DNA from: Chryseobacterium sp. 39-10
Lineage (GTDB): Bacteria > Bacteroidota > Bacteroidia > Flavobacteriales > Weeksellaceae
Reading direction: 5' to 3'
Assembly (NCBI GenBank): GCA_001898255.1
Contig: MKTK01000010.1
Span: 95,896-159,895 of the forward strand
Length of the DNA stretch: 64,000 bases
Each line of letters starts with the position of its first letter. Position 1 is the first letter of the stretch. Of the stretch, positions 10,482 to 30,347 are shown in pieces. The notes under the pieces are model-generated. The model ran no database searches, was not told the DNA's origin, and saw only the letters and a list, made by a program, of their open reading frames with translations. Made by a program: the position numbers and the translations under genes.

Positions 10482-11734
10482 GGGCGACGCTTAATTTTTT
10501 GGAGTAGGAGTTGAAAATCAGTTCTGGAAAAAAAGAAATCCTGAATCTTAAATGTAGTCAGTTGATAAAAGTTCCAAAATAAAATACCGGAAGACAACAG
10601 ATAAGAAACTGATGTCACGATGCAGCCCCCAACGATTCCCCATCTGGGTATGCAGTACCATGATGCAATAATGGTGAATACCAAGCCCACTAGTGATTTA
10701 ATATTCAAAATCCTGAGTTTATTGACCCCGGCAAAATAAAACCCCAAGACATTACTCACCGCAATTGCTAAAATCCCCGGCGAAAGCAAGATAATAATCT
10801 CTTTGGTCTGACTAAAATCTTTACCGAAAATCATGGCGTACAAGGAAGCGGGGATCAATAGCATTAAACCCAGCGAAACCAGGGTGACCAAAAAGCTGAT
10901 CTTCATCGAAATCTTTGTTTTTAGGATGGCGTCTTCCTTATGTTCGCTGTTGATGATATCGGCATACAGAACTAGTGCAAGTGTTCTGCTCATGGTCCAG
11001 ATTGCTTCAGAGAAAGCCACACCCACCGAGAAAATACCAACGCTTGCGATGCCCTTGAAAAACTCAAGAAAATAATACGAAAGTCGGTTGTTAAGAAACT
11101 GCAAAAATGCGCTGAGTTGGGATTTCCAGCCGTAGCTGAAAAGTTGTGCTGCAATGTTTTTTGACAACTTAAATTCTGAAAGCTTATACAACCTAAAAAT
11201 CTGTATAAAGCTGATGATAAACAACAGGACGTAAGCTAAAATTTGAGCAACGAAATAGCCCGTAATATCTGTATAGTGAAGTACATTCACCATTCCCAAA
11301 ATAAATAGAAAATGAACCGCCAGCTGCAAAATAGTATAAAGGTTATACATCTTGATATGCTGCTTACCGACAAAAAGATTAATGTTGGTCGTGAGTAATG
11401 ACGTAAGTACCGATAAAGCGATCAGGTAAACCGTAAAAGACTGCGGATGTGCCCACGATAAAAGAAGTGGGGTCACTATTCCAGAAACTATCGACCACGA
11501 ATAGGCATGGAAAAGAATAGTTCCCGTTTGAAATTTCGAGGAGAAAAAACTCACAGATCCACCTGCAAAAATATTGCTCAGAAACATGATGACCGCCAAA
11601 TCTGCTGTAACAATAGACACCACACCCTTTCCTGCGCTCCCCCATACGTTCGTTGTATAGATAATGAGGCCGAAACTCAGGATCAGAATTAAAAACCGAG
11701 ACAGAAAAGTCTGTAAAATCGTTTTATACTTCAA
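10478..11734 (-). CDS. Wzx/MATE-type polysaccharide flippase
   Basis: About 12 TM helices, LQFLNNRL motif. TTG start 1 nt after the glycosyltransferase stop assumed (ORF track 11758). Confidence 0.85.
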   Translation of the reverse strand: MKYKTILQTFLSRFLILILSFGLIIYTTNVWGSAGKGVVSIVTADLAVIMFLSNIFAGGSVSFFSSKFQTGTILFHAYSWSIVSGIVTPLLLSWAHPQSFTVYLIALSVLTSLLTTNINLFVGKQHIKMYNLYTILQLAVHFLFILGMVNVLHYTDITGYFVAQILAYVLLFIISFIQIFRLYKLSEFKLSKNIAAQLFSYGWKSQLSAFLQFLNNRLSYYFLEFFKGIASVGIFSVGVAFSEAIWTMSRTLALVLYADIINSEHKEDAILKTKISMKISFLVTLVSLGLMLLIPASLYAMIFGKDFSQTKEIIILLSPGILAIAVSNVLGFYFAGVNKLRILNIKSLVGLVFTIIASWYCIPRWGIVGGCIVTSVSYLLSSGILFWNFYQLTTFKIQDFFFSRTDFQLLLQKIKRRP

Positions 11735-11735
11735 G

Positions 11736-12866
11736 TTATTGCAGGGCTTTTTTGACAAATTTCACAAAAGAATCACTTATTTTTCTCCAATTGCATTGCA
11801 TTAAAAACAGACTTCTGCCGCGCTTTGCATGCTGCATATAAAGTGCAGGATCGTCAATATAATTCAGCACAATATCGGCAATTTTTTCTGAATCTTCAGG
11901 ATGAACCAAATGACCAAAAGCGGAAATATCCATTTTATTTTGAATGGCCTTAAGCGCTGTATAAATCACCGGCTTACCAGCGCCTGCATAGTAAAAAATC
12001 TTGATCGGAAAGCTTCTGCTGTACTCTCTGTTATTCTCTCGGAGATCAAAGCACAAATCAGCACTGGCCAATGCATTTGTAAATTCAACAAAGGGAACTT
12101 GCTCGCGAATTTCAATATCGCTGAAATTATACTCTTCTAATAGTGCTGAGAAATACTGCTCATCTGATTTTCTTTTTGGGCGGCCAATGATCAGCACAGA
12201 AACCTTTAATGACGGACGTTTCTTTTGGAGTGCCGCTATTGCTTTAAAGAAATTCCCAATACCATCTTCTTCCGAAATTCTGCCGGTGTAGCATAAACGA
12301 ATAGCGTTCGGCGTTAATTCTTTAACATGATCCGCAACATATTTCTCGTCCGGATAATAACCCAGATCAAGGGATTTTTTCCAGGGGAAAAGTTGCGCCA
12401 AAGGAAACTTCTTGTTGTCTTCTCCAAAAATAAAATGACTACTCAGGAAGCCGGCATACCCCTGAATGAGGAAAAACTTGACGGCATGAAAAAACTTTGT
12501 AAAACCCTTATATTGCTGCAACATCCGGTACGACGGATACCATTCGGTAATATCGTACATCAGCGGAATTTTTGACTTGGATCGGTATGCTTTCGCCGCC
12601 ATCACCGCAAGCGGTTCAGATGCAATAATGGCGTCAGGTTGAAAAGCGTTAATTACATTTTGAAAAGCAGCTATTTTTTGTTTTGCCGATTGTTGCAGAA
12701 TCGAACTTGAATCGATTTCTACACCGTCAATGGTGCCCGAGAACGCACTGTTTAAACTGCAAATCTTGACCTGAAAACCATTTTGCTGCAATGTTTTTGC
12801 CTGATGAAAAAAAATTCGGTCATCATCAAATTTATGAGCAGTCGTCAGGAAAAGGATTTTAGCCAT
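11736..12866 (-). CDS. GT-B (GT4-like) glycosyltransferase
   Basis: HKFDDDRIF N-terminus and FPIKIFYYAGAGKPVI donor-binding region. Confidence 0.88.
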   Translation of the reverse strand: MAKILFLTTAHKFDDDRIFFHQAKTLQQNGFQVKICSLNSAFSGTIDGVEIDSSSILQQSAKQKIAAFQNVINAFQPDAIIASEPLAVMAAKAYRSKSKIPLMYDITEWYPSYRMLQQYKGFTKFFHAVKFFLIQGYAGFLSSHFIFGEDNKKFPLAQLFPWKKSLDLGYYPDEKYVADHVKELTPNAIRLCYTGRISEEDGIGNFFKAIAALQKKRPSLKVSVLIIGRPKRKSDEQYFSALLEEYNFSDIEIREQVPFVEFTNALASADLCFDLRENNREYSRSFPIKIFYYAGAGKPVIYTALKAIQNKMDISAFGHLVHPEDSEKIADIVLNYIDDPALYMQHAKRGRSLFLMQCNWRKISDSFVKFVKKALQ

Positions 12867-14343: not shown

Positions 14344-15672
14344 TTATTCTTTTGCCCAATTCAAACGGTCTGCCTGATTATATTGCCAAGGTGCAGCATT
14401 GTTTTCTACATTGGTCATCATCAGATTCAATTCTTGCGGAGCTGCAGATTGCTCCATCACCAGGAATCTCCTCATCTCAAAAATAATAGACAATGGATCG
14501 ATGAGTACAGGACAAGCTTCTACACAGGCATTACAGGTGGTGCATGCCCACAGTTCTTCGTTGGTTATGTAATCATTTAGAAGTTTTTTGCCATCATCCA
14601 CAAACTTACCTCCGTTTTTGTTAATGTTTCTTCCTACTTCTTCTAAACGATCCCGTGTTTTCATCATAATAAGGCGAGGTGAAAGCTTTTTACCCGTAAT
14701 ATTGGCCGGACAAACAGCGGTACACCTTCCACATTCGGTACAGGAATATGCATTAAGCAACTGCACCTGATTCAGATCAAAAATATCGCTTGCGCCAAAC
14801 TTCTCAGGAACAGCAGTTTCCCCTTCTGGTGGAGCTGCATAAGGATCAGCATTGGGATCCATCATCAATTTAATCTCCTGCGTTACCGAAGCCAAATTAT
14901 TGAACTTTCCTTTGGGCTGCAGATTAGCAAACCACGTATTGGGAAACGCCAAAATGATGTGAAGATGCTTTGAATAATACAGATAATTCATAAAAAAAAG
15001 CACACCCAATATATGAAACCACCACGCAGCACGCTCTGTAAAGATCAAAAAACCATCACTAAAATGCTGAAAAACTGGCCCCATCAAATGGGAAGAAACG
15101 GGGAAACTTCCGTGTTCAGGAAAGACACCTCTTTGTTGAAGCACCCAATCGGCGGCATTCATCTTGAAGAAAGCTATCATTAAAGCAAATTCGATGACTA
15201 AAATCCAGTTGGCATCATGTTTTGGCCAACCGAAAAGCTCTTTCATCGTTAATCTTTTTACGCCATAAAAGTTTCTTCTTATAAAAAAAATGACAACGGC
15301 GAAAACCACCAAGAATGCCAATATCTCTAAAGTTGCGGTAAATATATTGTAGAGCGAGTGCCCTAAAACCTGAGACAAAACACGATGAGTCCCGAAGATA
15401 CCATCGATCATGATTTCGATGAGTTCCAGATTGATGATGACAAAACCAACGTACACAAAAATGTGTAGAATTCCGGCAATAGGTCGTTTGGTCATTTTAC
15501 TTTGCCCCATTGCCACTTTTGCCATGGTTTTCCATCGTTCCGAAGGATGATCGGTTCTATCAATGGTTTTGCCAAGTTTAATATTGCGGTAGATCTCTTT
15601 TAAACTTCTAAAAAAAAGGCCGAAACCTATCGCAATAGCGATGATGAAAAGGATATTGTCAACATATTGCAT
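14344..15672 (-). CDS. Membrane Fe-S oxidoreductase (NarI/DsrM-like TM domain plus 2x[4Fe-4S])
   Basis: TM helices, CTECGRCTAVCP and CTTCNACVEACP. Confidence 0.92.
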   Translation of the reverse strand: MQYVDNILFIIAIAIGFGLFFRSLKEIYRNIKLGKTIDRTDHPSERWKTMAKVAMGQSKMTKRPIAGILHIFVYVGFVIINLELIEIMIDGIFGTHRVLSQVLGHSLYNIFTATLEILAFLVVFAVVIFFIRRNFYGVKRLTMKELFGWPKHDANWILVIEFALMIAFFKMNAADWVLQQRGVFPEHGSFPVSSHLMGPVFQHFSDGFLIFTERAAWWFHILGVLFFMNYLYYSKHLHIILAFPNTWFANLQPKGKFNNLASVTQEIKLMMDPNADPYAAPPEGETAVPEKFGASDIFDLNQVQLLNAYSCTECGRCTAVCPANITGKKLSPRLIMMKTRDRLEEVGRNINKNGGKFVDDGKKLLNDYITNEELWACTTCNACVEACPVLIDPLSIIFEMRRFLVMEQSAAPQELNLMMTNVENNAAPWQYNQADRLNWAKE

Positions 15673-15691
15673 ATGAAGAGGTATTTAGCTT

Positions 15692-16642
15692 TTAGTTGGA
15701 ACTGTTCTTCCCAAACACCGAAAAATTGAGGTATCGTTTTGGGTTTTGCTTCAGATCAATAATCAGTTTATTGAGGTTTTGCGATGATTCATTAAGATTT
15801 TTGTAAAGTTCTTCATCTTTAGTGAGTTTACCAAGCGATCCTTCTCCATTCTGTATGCCTGTAATAACACCGTTCAATTTATCCGCGGTGATGCTCAGTT
15901 TATCGATGGCGTTATTCAGTTTGGCCACATCTACCTCATCAGCCACTTTTCCATATTTATCGATGGCTGTTCTCGCACTAACGGTAGCAAGGTTTGCATT
16001 GTCGAGCACTTTCTGAATGCGCGGATCACTACTCGCCAACAAAGAATTGGTTTGTTGCGAAGTACTTTCGAAGGACGCAACGGTTTTGTTGAGACTGGAA
16101 AGCAATGCTTTTATGGAGCGCTGATTGTCGGCATCGGTAATGAGATTGGCGTTATGCATCAAAGAATCAACTTTTTTCAATACTTCTTGCACCTGATCCT
16201 TTACAGGACCTACCTGCGAGGAAATATTATTCATCATCGATAGTTTAAATGCGCCTGTCAGTGTGTCGCCATCTTTAGCAATGGGTTGTCCGTATGCTAA
16301 ATTAATCCGCGTTTCTTTACCCGACATCAATCCCGGCTCAAAAATCTCGAGTGTAGATCTTTTCGAGAATTCAAACTTATCATCCACAATTACCTTCACC
16401 ACAAAATGGATTTTGCCATCCTTCTCAGTAACGGGTATAATTTTATCAACCTGCCCCACTTTTAATCCATTAATTGACACGGGGTTAGAAGCTGCCAAAC
16501 CTTCCACATTATCAAATTTTGCATAAAAAATATTGTCGGTGGTGAAAAGACTTTTACCTTTCATAAACTGAAAGAGAAAGATAAAACCTACAATGGCTAA
16601 AATGGCGATAAGACCAGCTTTTATTTCTTTGGTGAACTTCAC
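15692..16642 (-). CDS. mlaD: MlaD/MCE family protein
   Basis: N-terminal TM helix, GLAASNPVSINGLKVGQV MCE motif, GSLGKL helical tail. Confidence 0.88.
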   Translation of the reverse strand: MKFTKEIKAGLIAILAIVGFIFLFQFMKGKSLFTTDNIFYAKFDNVEGLAASNPVSINGLKVGQVDKIIPVTEKDGKIHFVVKVIVDDKFEFSKRSTLEIFEPGLMSGKETRINLAYGQPIAKDGDTLTGAFKLSMMNNISSQVGPVKDQVQEVLKKVDSLMHNANLITDADNQRSIKALLSSLNKTVASFESTSQQTNSLLASSDPRIQKVLDNANLATVSARTAIDKYGKVADEVDVAKLNNAIDKLSITADKLNGVITGIQNGEGSLGKLTKDEELYKNLNESSQNLNKLIIDLKQNPKRYLNFSVFGKNSSN

Positions 16643-26211: not shown

Positions 26212-27585
26212 ATGCAGAAACTTCGATTTTCGCGATATTTCAAAGTTATTTTTATACTCCTCGATATCATCGTCATCGCAGGAGTTTTTCTATATTTCTT
26301 TTTAAAAAACAACGAGTTTAAATACGACCATGATATTTGGGAACAAAACATGCTGTCCTTGGCTCTGCTGGGCTTTTTTTGGATTCTTTTAAGCGGCAGA
26401 ACGCGGCTATACTCCATTCCTCGTAACTTAACGTACACCATTTATCTGGAACGTCTGGTGACGCACATTTTCATCTTTATTTTTGGCGTTGTATTGTTGG
26501 CCAAAGTGAGCAACAACAGCTTTCTGAAAGAAGATCGGTTTATGATTGCGCTCAGCTTATTGTTGCTTTTGTTTATACTAAAATCTTTGCTCTTCTTTAC
26601 GCTTAAATATGTCAGAACTTTGGGAATTAACCACCGAAATGTCATGTTTTTGCGCGAAGATTCTTCCACTGAAATATTGAGAAATATCCTGAACGAAAGG
26701 AAAGATTATGGTTTTAAAATTTTTGATTATCCTGACGAAAAGAAAATTGATTTCGAGAAACTGACCCTATTTTGGGAAGAAAATGGCATCCACACGATTT
26801 ACCTATCGAACGAAGCTGTCTCATTACCAAAAAATGAGGAACGGGAACTTTTTCGGCTTGCCGATTTGCACAAGATTAAAATATCGCTCGTTCCCAGCAT
26901 CCTGAAAAATAACTTTTTCCAGTACGACATTGCATACATTGAGACTCAACCTATTTTGGTGCGTGCCAAATTTCCTTTAGATTTTCTTACCAATGCTGTT
27001 CTCAAGAGAACCTTCGACATCCTCTTTTCCATCGCCGTTTTAGCAGGTGTTTGCAGCTGGCTCTTTCCTATCATCGCTTTGCTGATTATGATTGACAGTA
27101 GAGGTTCGGTTTTCTTCCTTCAAAAAAGGTATGGCTACCATGACCAGGTTTTCAAATGTTTCAAATTCAGAACGATGTATGTGAACAGTGATGCCGCGAA
27201 TAAAACTACCGAACACAACGACAAACGCATCACACCATTAGGAAAATTTCTGCGAAAAACCAGTATTGATGAACTTCCTCAATTCATCAATGTGCTGATA
27301 GGTGAAATGTCGGTGGTGGGCCCAAGACCTCACATGCTTCTGGTGGACGATTTCTATAAACCAAAAATCGGAAGATATTTTGTGCGAAGCATGGTAAAAC
27401 CTGGAATTACAGGGCTGGCTCAGGTAAACGGACTTCGGGGAGATTTTGGCGATATGAATATTGAAATGCACAAAAGAATTCTTGCGGATGCATTTTATGT
27501 AAAAAACTGGACCATCAGTTTGGATCTTGTCATCATCCTCAAAACCATTTTTCTGGTAGTGCGCGGCGATAAAAATGCCATATAA
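26212..27585 (+). CDS. Undecaprenyl-phosphate sugar phosphotransferase (WcaJ-like)
   Basis: KRTFDI, FKFRTM, DELPQFINV and VKPGITGLAQV motifs. Confidence 0.92.
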   Translation: MQKLRFSRYFKVIFILLDIIVIAGVFLYFFLKNNEFKYDHDIWEQNMLSLALLGFFWILLSGRTRLYSIPRNLTYTIYLERLVTHIFIFIFGVVLLAKVSNNSFLKEDRFMIALSLLLLLFILKSLLFFTLKYVRTLGINHRNVMFLREDSSTEILRNILNERKDYGFKIFDYPDEKKIDFEKLTLFWEENGIHTIYLSNEAVSLPKNEERELFRLADLHKIKISLVPSILKNNFFQYDIAYIETQPILVRAKFPLDFLTNAVLKRTFDILFSIAVLAGVCSWLFPIIALLIMIDSRGSVFFLQKRYGYHDQVFKCFKFRTMYVNSDAANKTTEHNDKRITPLGKFLRKTSIDELPQFINVLIGEMSVVGPRPHMLLVDDFYKPKIGRYFVRSMVKPGITGLAQVNGLRGDFGDMNIEMHKRILADAFYVKNWTISLDLVIILKTIFLVVRGDKNAI

Positions 27586-27936
27586 AGCATAATGAAATGA
27601 CCTGATTCAGCGTGTTAAGAATGATTACTATCTGCTTTTCTCGGAGTTATGGCTTTAATTTCTCCTTATAATAATCCCAGATTTTTTGACGATTTTTAGC
27701 GGAATGATGCTTGTTGATTGAATTTTATTCACTCTTAGGATTTCCAAAAACTTTCCTGAAAATAAGAAATTTTGCCTATTATTTCACTGTCATACCCTAA
27801 AATAGGTTGACTTTTTTGGGTTAAAAATAAGGTTTAGCTTAACGATCTAAAAGTAGAAATTTTTTGACAATGACAGCATAAAGTAAGAAGTTTATGAGCA
27901 GCTTCGGCGAAATAGGCCAAATACTTCAACTTGCAA

Positions 27937-27970
27937 TTTCTCCCGCAATTTGCCAATACATGTTAGCAGA
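27937..27970 (-). repeat. attC-like half-site (copy 2)
   Basis: 32/34 identical to 28961-28994; on the minus strand it begins TCTGCTAAC 6 nt after the stop of 27977-28426. Confidence 0.8.
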
Positions 27971-27976
27971 TGGTTT

Positions 27977-28426
27977 TTAATGAATTTTAGAAAAATATCT
28001 TCTGATAATGTCAGTTTTTCCGTCATTGTCAACATCTTGAGATCTGTCTTCAAAAACCAATTCATTTTCTGTTAGTTTTGTTATAAAATAGGGATAATCC
28101 TGCTCATTTTCATACCAAAATTTCATATTGGCTTTGTCAAAAGTATAATTTCTTGAACTTACTTCTCCAGTTAATTGACAACTAGAACCAACTATTCCGT
28201 AGAAAGTTGATTTATGTACAGTTCCCAAAAATTCGTGAATTGATTTTTTATCACAATCACTCTTTTCAATTGTTTGAGTTTGATTAGTTGCGGACTTAAC
28301 GGCATCCACTTTTTGAAAACTCCATTTCCCAATTAAACTTGCCTCGATTTGCTGATTTCCATTTTCGTCACTTCTGCAAGAAGTGAAGATAAAAAACGCA
28401 GGTAAAATTATAAGTATTTTTTTCAT
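27977..28426 (-). CDS. Lipocalin-like lipoprotein (cassette cargo)
   Basis: Lipobox FTSC, LIGKW and ITKLTENELV motifs; AT-rich. Confidence 0.8.
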   Translation of the reverse strand: MKKILIILPAFFIFTSCRSDENGNQQIEASLIGKWSFQKVDAVKSATNQTQTIEKSDCDKKSIHEFLGTVHKSTFYGIVGSSCQLTGEVSSRNYTFDKANMKFWYENEQDYPYFITKLTENELVFEDRSQDVDNDGKTDIIRRYFSKIH

Positions 28427-28770
28427 TTTCCGACAGGTTCATTTTTAATATATGCAGGAAGTATAATTGCAATGGTAATTCCACCAACAATTAAAGGAAT
28501 TGTTTTCCCTGCACTAAATTTTAAAACTTTATTGATGCTATTTTTTTCGATTTGAATTTCTTTTCCTTCTTGATTTCCAATGATTGAATTGTCATCATTT
28601 CCTAAATATTCAAATTGTCTTATTTTATTTCCGTCTTTGGTTTGAATGATATATTTTGAATTTGTTTTCAAGACAGAGTAATCGTAGTTATTCTTGGAAC
28701 TGACTTTTGTGGAAACACATGCGTTTAAAAATAGAACACTGGAAAATAATATTAACGCTTTGATTTTCAT
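28423..28770 (-). CDS. Hypothetical lipoprotein with C-terminal TM helix (cassette cargo)
   Basis: Lipobox LNAC; ATGA overlap with the next gene. Confidence 0.78.
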   Translation of the reverse strand: MKIKALILFSSVLFLNACVSTKVSSKNNYDYSVLKTNSKYIIQTKDGNKIRQFEYLGNDDNSIIGNQEGKEIQIEKNSINKVLKFSAGKTIPLIVGGITIAIILPAYIKNEPVGK

Positions 28771-28796
28771 TTATTTGACTGATTCTTGAAAAGCTT

Positions 28797-28994
28797 TCTG
28801 CTAACGGAAAAAGTATTGGCGAAGTGTGGGTTTAATTTGAACGAATATTCAAGTTCATACCGAACGGAACCGATGCTTTTTTAATGAAACTAAGTTATCA
28901 AAAAAATGTGAAATTGAAAAATATTGGCGGCTAAATATTTCTAATTTTTTGATTCAACACTTTCTCCCGCATTTTGCCAATACATTTTAGCAGA
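28797..28994 (-). repeat. Full attC-like palindrome (198 bp)
   Basis: Terminal TCTGCTAAC/TTTAGCAGA boxes plus 18-bp arms 28813-28830 and 28966-28983. Confidence 0.8.
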
Positions 28995-29215
28995 AGGCGT
29001 CTTTTATTCTTGTGCTCCTTTTAGGCCAATTAATTCAAGATTTGGTGGTAGATAAACACAACTATACGAAAGTTTTCACACCTACAATGAGAATAACATG
29101 TATAACTTAATCCATTGTATATCAGTAAATAATAGTTATTTTCTCGATTCGCATTTTGTGTTTAACAGAAATAAAATGCCATATTTGTTTGGTAATAGTT
29201 AATCCGTTTTGCGCC

Positions 29216-29338
29216 ATGGTTTTTTCTCATCATGATTTCTCTTTTGGTACACATCATGCCAAAAACATTATTTTTTTTCGTTTTGCGTACGACACTACTT
29301 TAATTCAAGAGCTACGGAAAAGATGGTCTTATTACTAA
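29216..29338 (+). pseudogene. Putative N-terminal remnant of a Bacteroidota tyrosine recombinase
   Basis: MVFSHHDFSFGTHHAKNIIFFRFAYDTTLIQELRKRWSYY*. Similarity is from recall only; orientation is divergent from the cassette. Confidence 0.5.
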
Positions 29339-29594
29339 TTGAACTCTAAATCATCGTACTGAAATTATGGACCCCATTCGCACCCGGCATGCATCCTCTC
29401 TTTGAACCTTTAAAAAAAAATATAAATGGTATCAATGGTGAACCAAAGACCGGTAAAAGGTTATAAAAAAATAACATTCTGAAACCTTGACAAATTTTCT
29501 TTCTGCGTGATATTCTAAAAAAATTCTTCTGTTGAGTATGATAAAAATATCACTTAAAAAACACATCAAAAAATAAAAACACTAATTTAGCGGA

Positions 29595-30347
29595 ATGTTT
29601 AAAAAACTGTTGCACGAAATTGGTGCCTATTTCCTGCTATTATCAAAAACACTCAAAAAACCGCAGAAAACATCGGTGTTCATGAAACTACTGATGAGGG
29701 AAATTTACGATTTAGGCGTTAATTCCTTTGGCTTGGTTTTGTTCACTTCCGTTTTTGTGGGTGCGGTAGTGGCCATCCAAATGTATAATAATTTTAATGC
29801 CAGCAGCTTCCCCATTCCGAACTCATTTATCGGCTATGCCACCAAAGTAGTTCTTATTCTGGAATTTGCGCCCACCATTATTTCGGTTATCCTTGCCGGA
29901 AAAGTAGGTTCATACATCGCTTCAAGTATTGGAACCATGCGGGTTACGGAGCAAATTGATGCCTTAGATATTATGGGCGTCAACTCTCCTAATTTCCTCA
30001 TCATGCCCAAAATTATTGCCAGTGTCATCTTTAATCCTTTGCTCATCGCCATCAGCATCGTCTTCGGAATCTGGGGCGGATATCTTGCAGGGATTGCGAC
30101 CGGCAACTGGAGTCAGGCCGACTATATTCGAGGAATCCAGATGTATATGCCGCAACATTTTATTTGGTATGCATTTTTCAAAACTGCTGTTTTTGCGTTT
30201 ATTATTGCCACAGTTCCGGCTTATTTTGGATACAATGTAAAAGGCGGCTCCTTGGAAGTGGGACGCGCAAGTACCCAGGCAGTAGTGTGGACCATTGTAG
30301 CAATCATTATCATGAATTTACTTTTAACCCAAATGTTCCTCAGCTGA
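29595..30347 (+). CDS. mlaE: MlaE ABC permease
   Basis: EFAPT, IGTMRVTEQIDALDIMG and GRASTQAVV motifs. Confidence 0.93.
   Translation: MFKKLLHEIGAYFLLLSKTLKKPQKTSVFMKLLMREIYDLGVNSFGLVLFTSVFVGAVVAIQMYNNFNASSFPIPNSFIGYATKVVLILEFAPTIISVILAGKVGSYIASSIGTMRVTEQIDALDIMGVNSPNFLIMPKIIASVIFNPLLIAISIVFGIWGGYLAGIATGNWSQADYIRGIQMYMPQHFIWYAFFKTAVFAFIIATVPAYFGYNVKGGSLEVGRASTQAVVWTIVAIIIMNLLLTQMFLS

Follow-up and report, generated by a model that had tools for sequence, protein, structure and literature searches.

The short open reading frame at 29156–29338 (+) of the window, by which we mean the whole 64,000-nucleotide stretch of Chryseobacterium sp. 39-10 DNA analysed here, contains the truncated start of a tyrosine recombinase gene of the Flavobacteriales. 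We consider it likely that this stub is a pseudogene at the end of a satellite cassette platform that was inserted in the chromosome, that cassettes have turned over there since the truncation, and that the turnover was most likely catalysed in trans by two intact paralogues of the same genome, located on contigs C26 and C1. The stub comprises the promoter region, leader and first 36 codons of an integron-integrase-like recombinase, everything from the middle of the N-terminal module onward having been lost, and marks the recombinase end of a small platform, in which divergent promoter boxes are followed by a 197-bp palindrome, then by a two-gene cassette and finally by a half palindrome. The platform would have come in as an insert of ~2 kb, placed where a sugar-transferase gene has its 3′ end, and would have left a duplicated target. 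Cassettes would later have been gained or lost through crossovers at the palindrome bases, with the intact C26 and C1 paralogues supplying the catalysis.

The features of the region are listed below, with coordinates in the window and with the strand where one applies.

27568–27580 (+): left direct repeat GATAAAAATGCCA, within the final codons of the Bac_transf sugar-transferase gene
27878–27969: half palindrome (recombinase-proximal arm only) closing the cassette; repeat-profile positions 103–196
27977–28770 (−): cassette with two small lipoprotein-like genes that overlap (115 and 149 residues), taken from the open reading frame list; no Pfam family
28798–28994: full 197-bp palindromic repeat, the cassette boundary site; 149.6 bits against the repeat profile of the genome; the base stem folds
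28995–29035: spacer from the conserved flank to the first palindrome; not homologous to C26, conserved among strains
29036–29215: conserved 5′ flank with two divergent promoter-like sites; aligns with the upstream region of the C26 gene
29059–29087 (−): candidate outward, cassette-directed promoter; −33 TTG at 29087–29085, −7 TATAGTTG at 29066–29059
29155–29187 (+): candidate recombinase promoter; −33 TTTG at 29155–29158, −7 CATATTTG at 29180–29187, 21-base spacer; same layout in C26
29216–29326 (+): homologous part of the recombinase remnant, start codon and 36 codons (MVFSHHDFSFGTHHAKNIIFFRFAYDTTLIQELRKR); strands 1–2 and helix 1 of the N-terminal module
29327–29338 (+): unrelated tail WSYY and stop codon, past the end of the C26 DNA homology; hypervariable between strains
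29327–29505: orphan stretch from the break to the duplicated target; neither 300 family genomes nor the own genome gave a real match; no recombinase trace
29506–29556 (+): degenerate second copy of the sugar-transferase 3′ end; aligns with the gene ends of relatives and includes the right repeat GATAAAAATATCAC at 29540–29553

Identity and extent of the recombinase remnant

The program-made list of open reading frames gives a frame of 60 codons with a TTG start. The true start of the remnant is the ATG at 29216, which leaves 40 codons and a stop; the 20 codons upstream are an untranslated leader, merely an open frame, which is open in C26 too. A comparison with each of the 13 tyrosine recombinase genes in this genome matched the remnant to the start of the intact gene on C26. 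Window positions 29052–29324 and C26:79285–79559 (−) share 87% DNA identity over 276 bases (E = 6e-88), the C26 counterpart consisting of the 5′ flank and the start of the gene for an intact recombinase of 355 residues. A global alignment of the window with C26 stretches the homology to ~29036–29326, places its beginning near 29036–29046 and shows it ending abruptly after CGGAAAAGA (...LRKR). At the protein level, 29 of the first 36 residues of the remnant are identical to those of the C26 paralogue (MVFSHYDFSFGTHHDKDIIFVRFAYDKNLIQELRKK).

Direct Pfam and NCBIfam searches with the 60- and 36-residue peptides gave the identification no support and returned noise only, because the N-terminal module is absent from those libraries. 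The identity was settled through the full-length paralogues and through a custom profile of residues 1–83, built from 25 homologues of other organisms with the own paralogues left out. This profile scores the remnant at 39.7 bits (E = 2.6e-11, profile positions 1–37), while the runner-up among the 1482 six-frame peptides of the window has E = 0.69; a chance open reading frame is ruled out by this score. The DNA identity, the residue identity and the profile score together bear out the earlier note, made from the sequence without database searches, which had read the peptide as a 40-codon N-terminal remnant of a Flavobacteriia tyrosine recombinase. Its view that the peptide is an extension preceding a SAM-like domain also agrees with the intact paralogue, in which Pfam Phage_int_SAM_4 covers residues 84–164. 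The ‘WS’ that it had included in the N-terminal motif does not belong there: five residues (FPSAK or similar) separate LRKR from WS in every aligned member of the subtype, and four do so in the genus-type copies. The ‘WS’ of the remnant is probably a coincidence, because it lies beyond the point where the DNA homology stops.

The same break junction is present in at least 10 independent assemblies, and its recurrence rules out an assembly artefact. The break is placed only to within ~10 bases, because the next 12 bases are hypervariable between strains. Positions 29300–29545, searched against 300 genomes of the family, gave low-complexity chance matches only, and the ~180 bases between the break and the target duplicate have no relative in these genomes or in the own genome. 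An exact search of public genome contigs with 25 bases of the leader matched only a contig identical to C26.

Antisense to the remnant, at 29033–29260 (−), a 75-residue open reading frame has been annotated by gene callers in L052 and L058–L060. The window has an interrupted version of 31 residues, and the frame is probably spurious.

Loss of the catalytic domain and decay

With a full-length profile of the family, the six frames of the island match at positions 1–42 only and nowhere beyond, in keeping with the earlier statement that the catalytic domain is absent. In the whole genome, the only matches to this profile are the two full-length genes on C26 and C1, with no orphan fragment among them. 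The absence of any further piece of the gene, in the island or in the genome, rules out that it was split or interrupted. The stub lacks the core-binding and catalytic domains, including the catalytic residues (Arg, Lys, His-x-x-Arg, His, Tyr). Since the SAM-like and catalytic domains are missing, the locus is a pseudogene of the family and not a member protein, and the stub cannot recombine DNA. It retains strands 1–2 and helix 1, about half of the N-terminal module, as judged from the secondary structure of a predicted model.

The same locus was located in many public assemblies through exact-protein look-ups. All conspecific assemblies sampled carry the same truncation, which is thus fixed in the sampled population. 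Among these strains the island diverges 5–10 times faster than the flanking core genes. Differences in the island far outnumber those in the flanking genes when the strain is one of the more divergent: the remnant of L058 has 13/111 differences from that of the window, against 1/753 in mlaE. In L058, codon 24 is moreover a stop, and 1 base is deleted. That only half of the module is left and that one strain has a stop at codon 24 are further reasons to regard the stub as a pseudogene.

These data also bear on the idea that the 40-residue peptide is itself functional, for example as a regulator or decoy derived from the N-terminal module, to which we give almost no credence. A promoter-like site and the start codon are kept in all strains, as might be expected of such a peptide, but it comprises just two strands and one helix of a strand-strand-helix-strand-strand-helix module, it is cut short at codon 24 in one strain, the region evolves faster than the neighbouring genes, and the −7 box is mutated.

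Two related species have family genes with one internal stop each (TAA, TAG), at G017:C5:21008–22057 and G021:C1:200940–201953; decay of family genes therefore recurs in the genus.

Candidate promoters in the 5′ flank

Promoter sites were called from the Bacteroidota consensus TTTG / TAnnTTTG. The promoter elements that the earlier note had proposed for the recombinase were found at the positions given there, and they are conserved in C26, but the −7 box of the window has one mismatch: CATATTTG carries a T-to-C change relative to the perfect TATATTTG of C26, and the C variant occurs in all sampled strains of the species.

Of 8 intact platforms, 7 (L003, L002, L041 and L044–L047) have a perfect antisense TATATTTG at a distance of 135–189 bases upstream of the recombinase ATG, at −158 in C26, which makes this box a candidate conserved cassette promoter of the system. 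The antisense box of the window, TATAGTTG, differs from it at one position, and both promoter boxes in the window are one step off the consensus or the intact copy. The flank of the stub carries what looks like a cassette promoter, a function that we infer from the sequence. An Rfam scan of 27400–29700 gave nothing above chance.

The intact recombinase family

The family to which the stub belonged consists of Flavobacteriales recombinases of 355 residues, annotated as ‘tyrosine-type recombinase/integrase’. The genome encodes two intact members (C26 and C1) in addition to separate Xer-like genes; exact look-ups of the two proteins returned a single short contig each. The best 120 database matches, from Epilithonimonas, Chryseobacterium, Empedobacter, Tenacibaculum, Winogradskyella and other Flavobacteriales, have lengths of 353–395 residues and identities of 59% or more. 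This is a large family with little variation in length, and its catalytic residues are invariant across the alignment, the C26 and C1 paralogues included. The N-terminal consensus, M..xxYxFSFGxHxxKxVIWIxFxYxxxLxxxLRKRFPSAKWS, is matched by the stub, which stops before FPSAKWS.

In the C26 protein the SAM-like domain is followed by a Phage_integrase domain at 182–341, and residues 1–83 have no Pfam match. The NCBIfam models score it at 202 bits for XerA, the top match (cut-off 220), and at 187 bits, in two stretches, for the integron integrase model TIGR02249 (cut-off 265). The alignment with the integron integrase VchIntIA (PDB 2a3v) is split, query residues 91–289 corresponding to chain residues 13–213 and query residues 283–354 to chain residues 248–319, and the similarity reaches the C-terminal SPL motif. 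The AlphaFold model of the protein has a mean pLDDT of 84, and its best Foldseek match is 2a3v (E = 5e-14), followed by XerA. In sequence and fold, the intact family is closest to the integron integrases.

Residues 1–60 are predicted to form a strand-strand-helix-strand-strand-helix module with a pLDDT above 90. A Foldseek search of the isolated module against the PDB gave no significant match (best E 0.67), and a likeness to arm-binding domains is therefore unsupported.

The contig L065 (CALFXE010000265.1), titled ‘uncultured Paludibacter sp.’, is 100% identical to C26 over 8 kb. Among named organisms, Epilithonimonas and Chryseobacterium have the closest homologues of its recombinase, and the organism label may be wrong.

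Palindromic repeats and cassettes

The score of the full palindrome is typical of the array members in this genome; the half palindrome does not fold into a long hairpin. Dozens of palindrome copies form arrays on C9 (at least 12 copies), C25, C13, C16, C12 and C26. Many of them lie at contig ends, as do the copies on C26.

The remnant reads away from the minus-strand cassette genes, as the earlier note had remarked, and the intact copies in C26, G018 and G001 share this layout. On C26 the recombinase gene, which is 7.4 kb from the nearest recognisable palindrome, occupies one strand, and the cassette genes with three palindromes occupy the other. In G018, 21 repeats extend over 14 kb and end ~540 bases before the recombinase ATG, and in G001 the palindromes are upstream of, and divergent from, an intact family gene.

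Further elements were noted as well. Just past the conserved 5′ flank, C26:79555–79760 (L065 1578–1783) is repeated at C16:30–236 (83%) and C22:1726–1834 (92%); the next 7.4 kb in that direction contain no recognisable palindrome, and the repeat may be another boundary element of the main platform. In L042 (G011), two copies of a different tyrosine recombinase gene (11502–12398 and 14939–15835), with identical match statistics (31.35% identity to the family over residues 79–355), are each followed by a full palindrome (12544–12734 and 15981–16170) within the array upstream of the family integrase of that genome. They have the appearance of cassettes carrying a recombinase, or of an insertion element with the palindromes as its target. 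Finally, an 80-base element at 27788–27870 of the window (CCTAAAATAGGTTGAC...TTTAGG...) recurs four times elsewhere in the genome, on C13, C38, C14 and C24. At least two of these (C13, C14) lie ~30 bases upstream of the start of a ATGGAAAAA gene. The copy in the window is flanked by the half palindrome and the sugar-transferase gene; no gene follows it, and it has no Rfam match.

Strain variation and cassette turnover

Three array states were found among conspecific strains that share the same truncation. The window, L056 and L058 have one palindrome and the lipoprotein cassette (palB-lipo); L059 and L060 have the same cassette beside another palindrome (palA-lipo); and L052/L062 have palA-MNT/HepT-palB-lipo, with 931 extra bases and a nucleotidyltransferase/HepT gene pair. 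The core genes of L052/L062 are almost identical to those of the window (2/753 differences in mlaE), and the lipoprotein cassette keeps an identity of 99.8–100% even where two strains have different palindromes next to it.

A three-way alignment shows the window matching type A as far as ATGTATTG and switching to type B at the variable base that comes next. Its junction is confined to the 5-base GCAAA next to GTATTG, at the base of the recombinase-proximal arm, and this 5-base identity lies at the very edge of ~190 bases of 75% homology, where a homology-driven deletion would not be expected. L059 follows type A through GACAATAC and then has the TTGGC-AGAAAGCTTGTC allele, which accompanies the lipoprotein cassette in L056 and L058. 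The junction of L059 lies in CAATACTTTTTCCGTT, or at G/TTRGC, the distal end of the palindrome; it could be either a homology-driven deletion in the 15–19-base identical run or a recombinase event. The two breakpoints are thus at opposite palindrome ends, which is not what one would predict from a strict integron-type mechanism with a single crossover point. Ordinary homologous exchange may have carried alleles from one strain to another, and for this reason the order of events is one that we infer. Because every sampled allele is truncated, at least one event at the palindrome bases took place without a local recombinase.

The earlier note had concluded that, with the catalytic domain gone, the array would be frozen. 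This conclusion is not supported: two intact paralogues are present in the genome, and among strains sharing the truncation entire cassettes are present or absent, the breakpoints falling inside the palindrome bases. These differences suggest that cassettes have been gained or lost at the platform since the truncation, in events that the C26 and C1 paralogues most likely catalysed in trans.

Alternatively, the platform could be a frozen relic without any site-specific recombination, the strain differences having arisen through RecA-type or slippage deletions between palindromes combined with allele exchange. We consider this unlikely. The palA-lipo junction lies in a run of 15–19 bases that is identical between the palindromes and long enough for slippage, both promoter boxes are degraded, and the distal site is merely half a palindrome, all of which would suit a relic. 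However, the breakpoint between the window and L052 falls in a 5-base identity at the extreme edge of the homology, outside the longest identical runs, and the indel consists of exactly one palindrome and one toxin-antitoxin-type gene pair, which is typical of cassettes. The full palindrome moreover scores like the members of active arrays, and two intact paralogues are present. We therefore favour cassette turnover by site-specific recombination after the truncation.

Insertion at the sugar-transferase gene

In 8/8 related species examined, ~40 bases separate the Bac_transf sugar-transferase gene from mlaE, which comes next, and there is no insert; in the window, ~2 kb lie between the two genes. 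A genus-wide DNA search gave matches of relatives to the mlaE side of the query only. The duplicated 3′ end is contiguous with the ancestral spacer before mlaE, and the 35–55 bases before the right repeat resemble the 3′ end of the transferase gene. When the duplicate was compared with G024 and with the left copy of the window itself, one of 500 shuffles reached the score; in comparisons with four other relatives the score was not significant by shuffling. A target duplication beside the recombinase end is what an integrative element would leave.

The dead gene could also have been the integrase of a small island, formed by the inserted 2-kb unit or a larger ancestor at the sugar-transferase 3′ end, in which case the palindromes would be secondary. 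We regard this as rather improbable. The insert is bounded by GATAAAAAT...CA direct repeats, with the degenerate target 3′ end beside the recombinase end, and it is absent from all the related species examined; the gene reads towards the target junction, in line with the frequent position of island integrases next to their attachment site. Yet the same family is found beside long palindrome arrays in other genomes, and the similarity between arm and target is significant against some relatives only. An island origin would in any case be compatible with, and not opposed to, an integron-like role of the recombinase, and the cassette platform is the reading that we retain.

Significance

A literature search returned no description of a Flavobacteriales cassette system of this kind. 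We see an even chance that the stub belongs to a satellite platform of an undescribed gene-capture system of the Flavobacteriales, with an IntI-like recombinase that lacks the IntI insertion and perhaps reads its sites through a new N-terminal module, and that the strains record insertion and excision of cassettes after the death of the gene. If this is true, the system would operate in trans, and entire platforms could become established elsewhere in the chromosome, each with a duplicated target. Dead integrase genes as such are commonplace. The value of this one is that of a small, fully sequenced natural substrate for a cassette system: one platform in three natural allelic states, with breakpoints resolved to a few bases and two candidate enzymes in the same genome. 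The platform makes two questions assayable, namely whether an integron-like system can work without the IntI-specific domain and whether it can act in trans on orphan arrays. For annotation, it is a warning against taking an array for static just because the recombinase gene next to it is broken.

Comparison with known systems

The recombinase family shares the two-domain core of the Xer recombinases (archaeal XerA, PDB 4a8e and 5hxy; XerC/XerD). The XerA structure 4a8e is its best PDB sequence match (E = 1.4e-37), and XerA is its top-scoring NCBIfam model. In contrast to XerA, the score remains below the cut-off of that model and the family has an N-terminal extension; unlike Xer, it occurs in several copies per genome, beside repeat arrays, and not as a single chromosome-dimer resolvase.

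The likeness to IntI is closer in structure, VchIntIA being the best structural match of the intact paralogue, with similarity up to the C-terminus including SPL. It extends to the layout, in which the gene is divergent from a cassette array of hairpin-forming sites (window, C26, G018 and G001) with an outward promoter candidate. Unlike IntI, the intact paralogue lacks the ~35-residue IntI-specific insertion in the catalytic domain (residues ~214–247 of 2a3v are unmatched), falls below the TIGR02249 cut-off, and carries an extra N-terminal module, of ~60 folded residues within an 83-residue extension, that has no structural match. We file the family under neither IntI nor XerA, since it lacks the insertion of the former and scores below the cut-off of the latter. 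The sites also differ: attC sites are roughly 60–140 bp long, and the window, with one full and one half palindrome, and L052, with two full palindromes and one half, do not have canonical attC sites. IntI acts on attC sites folded from single strands and at one point in the R box; the breakpoints of the natural variants described here lie at both palindrome ends.

Truncated intI genes and attC clusters without an integrase (CALINs) are known, for which loss of intI by deletion and action in trans have been proposed, and chromosomal integron arrays of Xanthomonas with inactivated integrases have been described as stabilised after integrase loss (PMC8618304). As in these systems, the array of the window has had its own recombinase gene destroyed by deletion, the 5′ end and promoter region being left beside the first site. 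Unlike in them, the gene is not a bona fide IntI and the sites are ~197-bp palindromes instead of attC. Moreover, in contrast to the stabilised arrays of Xanthomonas, the platform described here appears, from the comparison of conspecific strains, to have continued to exchange cassettes after its recombinase gene was truncated.
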